Of a stretch of DNA of 53,656 nucleotides, positions 9,273-12,683 are shown piece by piece (position 1 is the first letter of the stretch; each line of letters opens with the position of its first letter). Both the position numbers and the translations under genes were made by a program. The DNA is from a virus. Taxonomy: Duplodnaviria > Caudoviricetes. The stretch is from positions 1 through 53,656 of IMG/VR virus record IMGVR_UViG_3300023181_000009; one strand, written 5' to 3'. Below the pieces are notes generated by a model. The model saw nothing but the letters and a program-made list of their open reading frames with translations. It ran no database searches and had not been told where the DNA came from.

Positions 9273-9710
9273 ATGATGGCAGCATATACAGAAGAACAAA
9301 TAAACGATAAGTTTGAAGCCGTTATAAACGATATAGAAGAAGGAAACTCATTGCGTAAAGCTTTGGGTTTTTATAATATAAGTTCAGCAACATTTTATCA
9401 ATGGTTAGATGGAAACGATGAAAGAAAAAAACGGTACGCGCGCGCATGCGAGGACAGAGCTGATAAACTTTTTGAGGAAATACTGGAAATAGCAGACAAG
9501 CAAGATAAAGATGTTTACGAAGTTGATGGGGTTGTTTATACAGACCATAATGTAATAAATCGATCAAGGTTGCAAGTTGATGCTCGTAAATGGATGGCTG
9601 CTAAAATGAATCCTAAAAAATTCGGAGACAAAGTAGACATGACCACTAATGGTAAAGACCTGCCGCCGGCTACAATTATTAAATGGGGCGATAAAGAAAT
9701 ACGAATATAA
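9273..9710 (+). CDS. terS: Terminase small subunit (Sf6-like)
   Basis: N-terminal HTH, YARA, RSRLQVDARKWMAAKMNPKKFGDK; directly upstream of terL. Confidence 0.88.
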   Translation: MMAAYTEEQINDKFEAVINDIEEGNSLRKALGFYNISSATFYQWLDGNDERKKRYARACEDRADKLFEEILEIADKQDKDVYEVDGVVYTDHNVINRSRLQVDARKWMAAKMNPKKFGDKVDMTTNGKDLPPATIIKWGDKEIRI

Positions 9711-11087
9711 ATGGTATTAACAAACAAACAAACAGAAGCGATGGTAGCCCTGCAAAGTGAGAAGTATAACTTCATCCTTTACGGGGGTGCCATCCGATGA
9801 CGGGGAGGTAAAAGCGTTTGGGGATTATCTGCTTTATTAATAATGTGCCAGGTGTTCCCTAATTCAAGATGGTGTGTAATTCGTGAGAACATGGAAAAAA
9901 TACGTACCACTACTATACCATCATTTTTAAAAATAAACCCATCAGGAAAGCTAAGACAAAGCCCTTACGAATATACACACCCCAACGGCTCAATAATATT
10001 ATTCAAGTCCGAGAACTACGTATCTGATAAAGAATTGGATTGGATGAAAGGATTAGAGGTAAATGGCTTCTTATTTGAAGAAATAAACGAATGTCAGGAA
10101 AAAACATTTTATAAAGCATTCGAGCGTTCAGGATCTTGGATAATACCTAATTCAAAATATCAACCTAAGCCAGTAATATTAGCCACATGCAACCCTACTC
10201 AAAATTGGGTTAAAGAAAAAGTATTCAATCCGTGGAAGGAAAACACATTAAACCCTAATTGGCTTTATATTCCATCTAAGATAAGCGATAACGTAGATGA
10301 GAATGGGGAGTCTAACTTACCACAAGAATATCTTGATAACTTAAACAACATGCCTCCTTATGAGTATGAAGTATTTGTTAACGGTAATTGGGATTTCTTA
10401 GTTAAAACAGGAGGGGAATTTTATAAACAATTTGAATACGATAAACAAAGGGGTAAAGCTGTTTACGATCCTGCATTGCCTTTGCACATAAGTTGGGATG
10501 ATAACGTTAACCCATACTTGCCTTGCGGTATATTTCAAATAGAAGGTTTGCATATTAAAATGATTGATGAAATTGCAGGAGAAACACCAAATAATACCGT
10601 TAAGTCCGTATGTAATGAAATAATACGTAAATACCCTGCTCACAATAGCGGAATGTTCGTATATGGGGATGCAACAGCGAACAAACAAGACACAAAACTG
10701 GAAAAAGGGCATAACTTTTATACACTTATACTTGAATATCTTAAACAATATAGACCCGTTAACCGTGTAACACGCTCAAATCCATCTGTAGTAATGCGTG
10801 GTAACTGGATAAATACTATCTTTGAAACTGGATTAGGAGGTATTGTAGTGACTATTGACGAAAAATGCACTAAAGCTATAAGCGATTTTATATTGCTTAA
10901 AGAAGCACCGGATGGGACTAAGCTAAAAGAAACTGCTAAGGATCCTAAGACAGGGGCTAAATTTCAGAAGTATGGACACTTTAGTGATTTATTCGATTAC
11001 ATTATGGTATCGGCCTTCAATAGCCAATACCAACTATATTTAAGTAATAAAAAGTCTAATAATTCATGGGCTTCTGCATTTAGGTAA
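9711..11087 (+). CDS. terL: Terminase large subunit with an in-frame TGA (9798-9800) inside Walker A; the ORF track shows only 9843..11087
   Basis: From ATG 9711: MVLTNKQTEAM...FILYGGAIR*RGGKSVW; Walker B FLFEE, coupling motif ATCNP, nuclease motifs ISWDDN, YGDA and GHFSD. Confidence 0.9.
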
Positions 11088-11095
11088 TTTATTGT

Positions 11096-11103
11096 TACAT
11101 TTG
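11096..11103 (+). promoter_or_regulatory. Promoter -7 box for the portal gene
   Basis: TACATTTG between the terL stop and ATG 11119. Confidence 0.55.
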
Positions 11104-11118
11104 TTAAAAATATTCACT

Positions 11119-12519
11119 ATGCAAATAGAATTCTTTATAAAAAATAAAAATAATCCAGGTATAATAGTTCCTGCTATTTTAAATGAGCATAACACATGCT
11201 TTGACTTAAAACTGTATAAAGAATACAATGCAGATGAACATAAAATAAACAGTAAGATATTCAGGCCTCAAAAGGTAATCACTAAAACATTAGATAGTTC
11301 TATTTTAGATATTAATGGAGAGAAAATAACCCATACTGTTTTAGTCGATGTTGCTCGTATATCATTAGCTATACAAAAGCTTATAGTAAGCCGTAAAACA
11401 GCTTTTACAACCGGAGGTAATGTTACCCTTAAATCAAAACCCTCAAATGATCAGGAAGCGGAAATAGCGGAACTTGTTAATGAAACGTGGAGAAAAAATA
11501 AATTACAGTATAGAAACGCAGATATATTTAGGGCTTTGGCTTCTGAAACAGAAGTTGCTGAAATATGGTATAGCAAAGTTAACTTAGATAAAACCATATC
11601 GCTAAAAACTAAAATATATACTCCAAGCGATGGTTATGAACTTGTTCCTATATTTGATGCACATAAAGATTTAATTGCTTTTGGATTACAATATGCAACT
11701 ACATTAAACAACGAGGTAATTAACCATTTAGATATTTATGATGAACTTGAAATAGTTAGATATACACAGCGTTCAGGTTATACATGGGTTATAGAAGAAG
11801 TTATACAGCATAACTATGGGAAAATACCTGTTATATACTATAGTATAAAACAGTCAGTTTGGCACGATGTACAAAACATGATTGAAAGGTTGGAAGTCTT
11901 AATGTCAAACTTTGCAGATACAAACGACTACAACGGATCACCTATACTATTTTCTAACGGAATGATAGAGGGATGGTCTGATAAAGGCGAGCAGGGTAAA
12001 TTAATTGAAGGAAAAGGAGAAGGGGCAAAGCTTGAATATGTTAGTTGGGATAGCGCACCGGAATCAATTAAATTAGAGATTGAAAAACTTACAGAGTTTA
12101 TTTATACAATAACTCAAACACCAAATATATCATTTAGCGAAATGAAGGGCTTAGGGGATGTTTCAGGTGTTGCTTTTGATAGGATTATGATTGATGCACA
12201 TTTAAACGCTACAGACCATCATAATGGTTCTTACGGAGAGGGAATACAAAGGAGAATTAACTTTTTACTTAGTGCGTTAGGTAATATTTACCCTAATCTA
12301 AAAATAGCTTCTGAAATAGAAATAACACCTATATTTAGTTTATTCAGTATTGATGATGAAAGCGACCGTATAGACAACGCAATGAAGGCAAACGGAGGTT
12401 TACCAGTTACATCGCATTTAGATTCAATTAAGCAGGCAGGATTAAGCGATGATGCAGAATTTACACTACAACAAATAAATAATCAACAACCTGTAACGGC
12501 AACTAATAAAAATATTTAA
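11119..12519 (+). CDS. Portal protein (SPP1 gp6-like)
   Basis: Position after terL; HNYGKIPVIYY, SNFADTNDYNGSPIL, SGVA motifs. Confidence 0.85.
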   Translation: MQIEFFIKNKNNPGIIVPAILNEHNTCFDLKLYKEYNADEHKINSKIFRPQKVITKTLDSSILDINGEKITHTVLVDVARISLAIQKLIVSRKTAFTTGGNVTLKSKPSNDQEAEIAELVNETWRKNKLQYRNADIFRALASETEVAEIWYSKVNLDKTISLKTKIYTPSDGYELVPIFDAHKDLIAFGLQYATTLNNEVINHLDIYDELEIVRYTQRSGYTWVIEEVIQHNYGKIPVIYYSIKQSVWHDVQNMIERLEVLMSNFADTNDYNGSPILFSNGMIEGWSDKGEQGKLIEGKGEGAKLEYVSWDSAPESIKLEIEKLTEFIYTITQTPNISFSEMKGLGDVSGVAFDRIMIDAHLNATDHHNGSYGEGIQRRINFLLSALGNIYPNLKIASEIEITPIFSLFSIDDESDRIDNAMKANGGLPVTSHLDSIKQAGLSDDAEFTLQQINNQQPVTATNKNI

Positions 12520-12653: not shown

Positions 12654-12683
12654 GTTGTGAACATAAACTAAAATAATTTTATT

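Follow-up and report, generated by a model that had tools for sequence, protein, structure and literature searches.

The large terminase (TerL) gene of an uncultured phage (Duplodnaviria; Caudoviricetes) is interrupted within its ATP-binding Walker A loop by an in-frame TGA that lies between two synonymous arginine codons, and full-length TerL is probably produced by translational bypass, here in the form of a minimal stop-hop of 6 nucleotides (nt). The stretch analyzed, referred to below as the window, is the viral record IMGVR_UViG_3300023181_000009, which is complete at 53,656 bp and has direct terminal repeats. The same break was found at the same codon in dozens of related terminase genes, where it follows strict codon rules, persists under purifying selection and is statistically associated with an adjacent homing endonuclease gene.

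The interrupted gene

From the ATG at 9711 the TerL frame reads MVLTNKQTEAMVALQSEKYNFILYGGAIR, followed by TGA at 9798-9800 and then by CGG GGA GGT AAA AGC. The 29 codons before the stop end TAC GGG GGT GCC ATC CGA, and the frame after it runs unbroken into an open reading frame (ORF) of 414 amino acids (aa) at 9843..11087. These elements, as well as the CGA and CGG flanks, had been described in an earlier sequence-only reading of this DNA and were confirmed. The coding gap comprises TGA and CGG (9798-9803) or, equivalently, CGA and TGA (9795-9800), and the Walker A motif G-x4-GK[ST] is intact only if these 6 nt are skipped, giving a predicted joined TerL of 456 aa. The parts of the gene, all on the + strand, are as follows.

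9711..9797, +, TerL segment 1: 29 codons, from the ATG to the take-off codon
9795..9797, +, take-off codon CGA (Arg29), proposed to be in the P site as the stop arrives in the A site
9798..9800, +, in-frame TGA with C as the next letter, the codon proposed to be skipped
9801..9803, +, landing codon CGG, the proposed re-pairing site, which would not be decoded again
9804..11087, +, TerL segment 2: 427 codons and stop, starting G G K S

Segment 1 contains, at 9729-9731, the Gln that is invariant in the N-terminal K-Q motif and, at 9783-9797, the residues G G A I R as the first half of the Walker A loop, while segment 2 carries the second half of the loop, the remaining ATPase and the nuclease domain. 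That the interrupted gene is the large terminase is indicated by a match to PHROG phrog_979 (E 1.3e-17) over residues 5-175, spanning the break, and by tblastn matches to annotated TerL genes; the Pfam Terminase_3 score of 22.4 bits falls slightly below the 23.2 cut-off. No second terminase-like gene was found in the complete 53,656-bp record, and no tRNA gene in the window.

In the proposed event, a ribosome would translate the 29 codons until the P site contains peptidyl-tRNA-Arg paired to CGA and the A site contains UGA-C, a point at which termination would be slow. The anticodon would then unpair from CGA, the mRNA would advance by 6 nt and the anticodon would re-pair on CGG, mainly via the two G:C pairs common to all CGN codons, after which decoding would restart at GGA to give ...GGAIR/GGKS... 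and the 456-aa protein. What the sequences show directly is the arrangement in the DNA, its recurrence, the codon rules and the purifying selection described below; the hop itself, its efficiency and any stimulators are inferred.

The interruption itself is real and not an artefact of assembly, since contigs from three runs in Logan are identical over the site, with 0 differing letters and 0 insertions or deletions. Run X1, the probable source run, has a depth of 498; the X2 contig spans 9583-10100 and the X3 contig 9637-9903, and these two runs come from samples and studies other than those of the probable source run. The record is a metagenome assembly, which is the one point that speaks for a sequencing or assembly artefact; this agreement, together with the occurrence of the same feature in different letters in dozens of other contigs, leaves that explanation with a negligible probability, and the assembly error that the sequence-only reading had wished to exclude is ruled out. 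Its argument against code reassignment also holds: among 62 non-overlapping ORFs of at least 100 aa in the window, 48 end in TAA, nine in TAG and five in TGA, which is thus a normal but rare stop. A stop flanked by codons matched in their first two letters and joining long open stretches inside one recognizable gene occurs only once in the window. Two further stops with matched flanking codons, at 12669 and 46437, proved to be ordinary gene borders and not stop-hop sites.

Recurrence in related terminases

A protein-based search of IMG/VR yielded 19 related loci, 17 of which include the N-terminus. Fifteen of these are uninterrupted; 12 read [FY]GGA[IV]RG[GA]K[ST] and three (L008-L010) read FGGAMGGGKT, with Gly in place of Arg. 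The nearest relative, L002 (91% identity), is uninterrupted, while L004 (73% identity) has CGC TGA CGT at the same place and L005 (77% identity) has CGA TGAA CGA, a 7-nt step after which the gene resumes in a shifted frame.

IMG/VR was also scanned with degenerate DNA patterns combining the Walker A loop with a stop. The TGA pattern matched 76 loci, of which 44 are terminase N-termini, and the TAA/TAG pattern 60 loci, including 35 terminases; a pattern for the uninterrupted loop returned at least 120 loci. The pooled terminase entries number 210, comprising 130 uninterrupted and 80 interrupted, the latter including the window and two contigs counted twice. All 80 interrupted TerL entries are broken after the Arg codon, at the [FY]GGAIR / GGK[ST] junction. 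The step is 6 nt in 42 entries, 7 nt in two, 10 nt in one and 11 nt in two, and there is a second group of long steps, with 39 nt in 27 entries, 41 nt in two and 42 nt in four. Judged by contig names, the interrupted loci derive from approximately 70 IMG datasets. A hop from CGA to CGG that restores a canonical G-x4-GK[ST] loop had been put forward from the window alone, with the suggestion that a conserved arrangement be sought in relatives; sites of codon, stop and synonymous codon are present at the same codon in dozens of genes and lend that proposal support.

The patterns also matched genes of other kinds. In L023, L035, L042, L051, and L053, a DNA methyltransferase-like ORF (…IVDPPFGGAIR) ends at the matching TGA with an open frame after it, which could be chance or another interrupted gene. 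A non-terminase ORF family that ends in [FY]GGAIR followed by TAA or TAG (L100, L102, L104, L108, L112, and about a dozen more) makes up many of the non-terminase matches and was treated as background.

Codon and frame rules at the gap

The landing codon, which was left unconstrained in both the TGA and the TAA/TAG scans, is CGN in 76 of the 80 interrupted entries. The take-off codon is CGN in all 80, as imposed by the search patterns; scanning with AGR versions of the patterns gave nine matches, none of them a TerL gene, even though AGA or AGG encodes the same Arg in 5 of 12 uninterrupted relatives from the protein-based set. The exclusive use of CGN at take-off, and never AGR, may reflect a need for two strong pairs on landing. 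In loci of the form CGN NNN CGN, the middle triplet was free to vary, and yet it is a stop in 41/41 (TGA 34, TAG 4, TAA 3, sense 0). TGA occupies 19 of 23 distinct short-gap sites as opposed to 5 of 62 gene ends in the window. The emphasis that the sequence-only reading had placed on a weak stop recognized by release factor 2 (RF2) is therefore only partly borne out: TGA is indeed favored at the short gaps, but TAA and TAG also occur, so that the arrangement is not RF2-specific.

The steps of 7, 10, 11, and 41 nt shift the frame, and an intact ORF of 405-430 aa starts at the landing codon; in the 41-nt gaps, the landing frame is also closed by a TAG. The two parts of these genes can therefore be joined neither by readthrough nor by simple frameshifting at the stop. 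Codon usage just ahead of the break is likewise unusual, with GCC used for Ala at 19/23 distinct short-gap sites versus 10/115 uninterrupted genes, and ATC for Ile at 16/23 versus 20/115.

The four entries whose landing codon is AGT (L027, L043, L061, and L062) represent one phage type with a 42-nt gap, in which take-off lies at L027:3549 and an adjacent HNH gene is present. Here, either a first-base mismatch is tolerated at landing or the product has a different junction.

Selection and protein structure

In 72 interrupted entries the locus includes the end of the ORF, and 68 of these encode at least 380 aa after the landing codon. The ratio of nonsynonymous to synonymous substitutions (dN/dS) is 0.036-0.078 in those 7 of the 11 interrupted pairs tested that had unsaturated dS, several of them in clades whose sampled members are all interrupted; the downstream TerL ORF is under purifying selection.

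The uninterrupted sister L002 (455 aa) was modelled with a 67-row alignment of uninterrupted relatives, as single-sequence prediction reached a predicted local distance difference test score (pLDDT) of only 31.8. The alignment-based model, with a mean pLDDT of 91.9, places a strand (21-26), a loop (27-31) and a helix (32-46) around the junction, and its best fold match in the PDB is the large terminase of phage D6E (E 7e-22), followed by those of Sf6 and T4; by sequence, no PDB match was obtained at E <= 1. Q7, G25, G26, A27, G30, and K32 do not vary across the 67 uninterrupted relatives, in which I28 and R29 are also almost constant, although most of these rows were picked by a pattern that fixes the Walker A motif. 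The 29 residues upstream of the gap form the nucleotide-binding N-terminus, so their conservation is not assignable to a nascent-peptide signal.

RNA structure and features within the gap

The gaps of 39-42 nt contain a 10-12-bp hairpin capped by a tetraloop that starts 2-5 nt past the stop and is followed by an A-rich tail and the landing codon. Among variants of one long-gap clade, the C:G pair closing the loop is swapped to G:C. Taken together, the codon, stop, frame and hairpin rules have the character of bypass by take-off and landing, and none of the other mechanisms considered accounts for the whole set. In one group of 39-nt gaps (L103:1723 in oriented coordinates, and relatives), a GTG within the gap opens an ORF reading VGAKIRGGKT, and gene callers would therefore start the terminase inside the gap.

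The short sites are different. The stem-loop of gene 60-type bypass is lacking in the window, where a 6-nt gap is too small to hold one, and the 6-nt sites as a group displayed no conserved RNA structure or Shine-Dalgarno-like stimulator (consensus fold energy -2.2). A hairpin 5' of the site and a Shine-Dalgarno-like signal, which the sequence-only reading had listed as supporting context, are not conserved, and the fold z-score of the window is -0.29. At 6-nt sites with CGC or CGG take-off (for example L004, L058, L088, and L026), the GGNGG of the Gly codons upstream can base-pair with the last base of the Ile codon, the take-off codon and the stop to form a hairpin of 5-7 bp with a 6-nt loop, which is missing from the window and other CGA sites. 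This hairpin may be linked to the GCC/ATC/GGT codon bias at the short gaps.

Homing endonucleases and a proposed origin of the gap

The gap is rather more plausibly than not the shrunken remnant of a cassette that consisted of a NUMOD4/HNH endonuclease gene and an insert, with the insert sitting in the presumed P-loop target of the nuclease. In five gapped loci from four clades, a free-standing endonuclease ORF with an HNH_3 domain lies directly upstream of TerL. Four of these ORFs also contain NUMOD4, and three a weak, sub-threshold helix-turn-helix; L064 has HNH_3 alone. A hidden Markov model (HMM) built from the five endonucleases was run against six-frame ORFs of the 210 entries, and only loci with at least 800 nt upstream were classified. 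An adjacent upstream endonuclease gene was present in 14/31 long-gap and 5/36 short-gap loci (19/67 gapped loci together) but in only 1/120 uninterrupted loci (Fisher p = 7.5e-9), and the association persisted when counted by 97% cluster (10/31 versus 1/80, p = 7.7e-6). In the clade of the window, L005 (7 nt) and L045 (6 nt) carry the endonuclease gene between the small terminase (TerS) and TerL genes.

A FastTree phylogeny of 111 representatives, built from the protein sequence downstream of the landing codon, requires at least 19 changes of gap state, 16 of them forced by well-supported branches, and gapped and ungapped genes pair as closely as 0.003-0.009 substitutions per site. Mismatches in such close pairs concentrate around the site. 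Between L064 and L189, successive 30-nt intervals hold 11, 5, and 8 mismatches upstream and 4, 4, 0, 4, 6, 1, 0... downstream, and between the window and L002 there are 12 in the first 30 nt downstream versus approximately 5 further on. The endonuclease association, the frequent gain and loss, the clustered mismatches and the shared synonymous codons together fit a cassette that would spread by nuclease-induced gene conversion into its presumed target and later lose the nuclease. The insert would shield its carrier from its own nuclease or that of a relative, while bypass would keep TerL working; the phage of the window would have lost, or never received, the endonuclease gene and retained the gap. 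The same reasoning has been applied to T4 gene 60 and the mobile endonuclease associated with it. A role in setting the TerS:TerL ratio or in sensing RF2, as entertained by the sequence-only reading, has gained no support, and the endonuclease link suggests a nuclease-immunity insert instead.

The genes flanking TerL in the window form a TerS-TerL-portal packaging module:

9273..9710, +, small terminase gene (Sf6 type), 145 aa; Pfam PF20901, E 1.1e-29
11092..12519, +, portal gene (SPP1 type); Pfam PF05133, E 4.2e-36

The TAA of the small terminase gene (9708-9710) directly adjoins the TerL ATG at 9711, leaving no space for a homing endonuclease gene between them. The TerS genes (9273-9710 in the window; upstream regions in L002-L140) are mostly unrelated beside closely related TerL genes, which places a mosaic boundary at or near the TerL start.

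Alternative explanations and points of doubt

Readthrough of the TGA, or its decoding by a suppressor tRNA, would produce a Walker A loop two residues longer (GGAIR-X-R-GGKS). Both parts of the gene in the window are in frame, TGA-C is a leaky stop context, and the enrichment of TGA at short gaps would suit such decoding. A tolerated insertion of two residues should, however, show sense codons where all 41 free middle triplets are stops, and it does not account for the second codon always being CGN. The gaps of 7, 10, 11, and 41 nt in close relatives are beyond repair by readthrough, uninterrupted relatives show neither variation nor gaps in the loop residues and the window has no tRNA gene, so that this explanation is judged very improbable. 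A dead gene, in which the 6 nt are a disabling scar left by a selfish element, or a mutation, and the phage is defective or helper-dependent, is suggested by the fact that an essential gene with a stop in its ATP site resembles a null allele, by further deletions or a frameshift in four interrupted entries and by the lack of a cultured relative. Against it stand the full-length ORFs in 68 of 72 complete interrupted entries, dN/dS values of 0.04-0.08 within wholly interrupted clades, the spread of interrupted loci over some 70 IMG datasets and the state of the window genome itself, which is complete with terminal repeats, has a depth of 498, recurs in three runs and has a single TerL gene; we regard decay of the gene as improbable.

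The two parts might also be reconciled by some other route, namely RNA excision or editing, polymerase slippage, or two fragments that assemble. The long gaps do encode structured RNAs, no RNA run lists the stretch, and one clade has a GTG within the gap from which gene callers would start an ORF. A ribozyme or splice structure would nevertheless not fit into gaps of 6-11 nt, and self-splicing introns are much larger than hairpins of about 25 nt. Slippage would call for a homopolymer, which the window site does not have, and with regard to two separate fragments, no ATG follows the gap in the window until 9843, past the P-loop, and a split between GGAIR and GGKS would be expected to break the nucleotide-binding loop. 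As each of these routes also leaves the CGN...CGN rule and the obligatory stop unexplained, we give them very little credence.

Several observations weigh against bypass in the window, or against the origin proposed for the gap. Every line of support is comparative, and no RNA run containing the stretch was listed among the runs. Synthetic stop-hops in E. coli are low-level events, so the yield of TerL could be low, and no conserved stimulator was found at the 6-nt sites. The window has CGA at take-off and CGG at landing, which share the first two bases and differ at the wobble base, and 15 of the 42 pairs in the 6-nt class likewise cross the CGH/CGG divide; by textbook decoding rules, one and the same tRNA-Arg(ICG) would form just two base pairs when landing on CGG. 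Interrupted genes made up only 2/17 of the protein-based sample, and counts from the pattern scans are not natural frequencies because the patterns admitted only CGN take-off codons followed by a stop. Four interrupted entries, L122, L133, and L135 (39-nt gaps) and L086 (6-nt gap), differ from close relatives by extra defects, namely a 1-nt frameshift or deletions within the ORF, and could represent defective variants or errors of assembly. The endonuclease HMM (E <= 1e-5) found no match anywhere in the window, so that an immunity role is not visible in that genome. Finally, tblastn with the window TerL and those of three other interrupted clades found no cultured phage above 60% identity, so that the viability of the interrupted phages is presumed.

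Host

In 401 genomes belonging to the same family as a Flavobacterium genome, the readthrough protein had no match at E <= 1e-15, and it had none at E <= 0.001 in three named genomes; a scan of genome contigs with the TGA pattern gave no terminase among the matches listed (at least 120). In the window TerS gene, a stretch of 108 nt is 72% identical to Leeuwenhoekiella phage vB_LaeS_Arctus_1. The nearest isolates, which are distant, suggest a host within the Bacteroidota.

Relation to known bypass systems

Efficient natural bypass has so far been represented by T4 gene 60 and its homologs, one yeast mitochondrial lineage and a candidate in Streptomyces phages. The closest parallel to the TerL family is T4 gene 60, whose endonuclease cassette is termed the MobA element; in the available excerpts of the preprint describing it, gene 60 homologs are confined to topoisomerase genes, the cassette is called unique, terminases go unmentioned and some genomes are said to keep the bypass after loss of the endonuclease (bioRxiv 2022.08.31.505936). 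As far as these excerpts go, both systems have a non-coding insert in a conserved motif of an essential enzyme, a stop directly after the take-off codon and a matching landing codon, and in both some genomes have lost the endonuclease and kept the gap, the insertions being patchy and recent-looking (bioRxiv 2022.08.31.505936). On the same partial account, a hairpin at the 5' end of the gap is common to gene 60 and the 39-42-nt TerL relatives but not the 6-nt form in the window, and a free-standing HNH-family endonuclease gene adjoins gene 60 and some TerL gaps, though not that of the window. The two differ in target (the TerL P-loop here, a topoisomerase subunit in T4), codon (Arg CGN as opposed to Gly GGA) and gap length (6-42 nt as opposed to approximately 50). 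In the TerL family, unlike gene 60, the gene downstream of the endonuclease gene is unsplit, and the phages are uncultured, without a close isolate and known from sequence alone.

Stop-hops as such have been demonstrated with synthetic constructs, and the portion of a 2016 review that was available states that natural in-frame cases are unknown (PMC5009743). In the E. coli constructs (Weiss et al., 1987, as related in that portion of PMC5009743), matched codons likewise flank a stop, one amino acid is specified by nine nt and the product is smaller by two residues than the one made by readthrough; those were engineered, whereas the arrangement in the TerL family is natural, recurrent and under selection. 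In Streptomyces phage Hau3, the gene encoding the terminase has two 10-nt blocks headed by the rare codon UUA, for which bypass is partly supported by experiment according to excerpts of the report (PMC10732093). As in the window, short non-coding blocks lie in TerL and conserved flanks argue against extra residues. The trigger in Hau3, however, is a sense codon that is rare and linked to the tRNA supply of the host where the TerL family uses a stop, and its proposed role, as the excerpts present it, is that of a lysis/lysogeny sensor, unlike that in the TerL family; two sites in three genes of 100 are involved, and no endonuclease link is reported in the excerpted text (PMC10732093). The byps of Magnusiomyces, so far as covered by the available part of PMC5009743 and general knowledge, differ again in being mitochondrial, occurring in many genes, having no adjacent nuclease and belonging to another translation system. 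Further papers that touch on bypass close to HNH genes or terminases deal with other circumstances (PMC4351075, PMC2677866), and the full-text literature that was searched, which excludes subscription journals and supplements, describes no gap in a terminase Walker A motif. It is likely that these genes constitute the first natural in-frame stop-hop and a second independent family of endonuclease-linked bypass, located in the TerL Walker A loop, using tRNA-Arg and CGN codons and forming a series from 42 to 6 nt.

Implications

At a single site, the TerL family provides dozens of natural variants that are independent of one another, among which the gap, the stop, the codon pair and the hairpin vary, and the series is therefore suited to asking what the ribosome needs for take-off, slide and landing. 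It also ties bypass to homing-endonuclease conflict in a second gene. If the reading is correct, gene callers systematically split such genes, and terminases that seem to be cut short or disrupted at the P-loop could be intact, which bears on annotation, completeness estimates and terminase phylogenies. Bypass would then be a recurrent means by which phages tolerate nuclease-immunity inserts in essential motifs, and not an oddity of T4.

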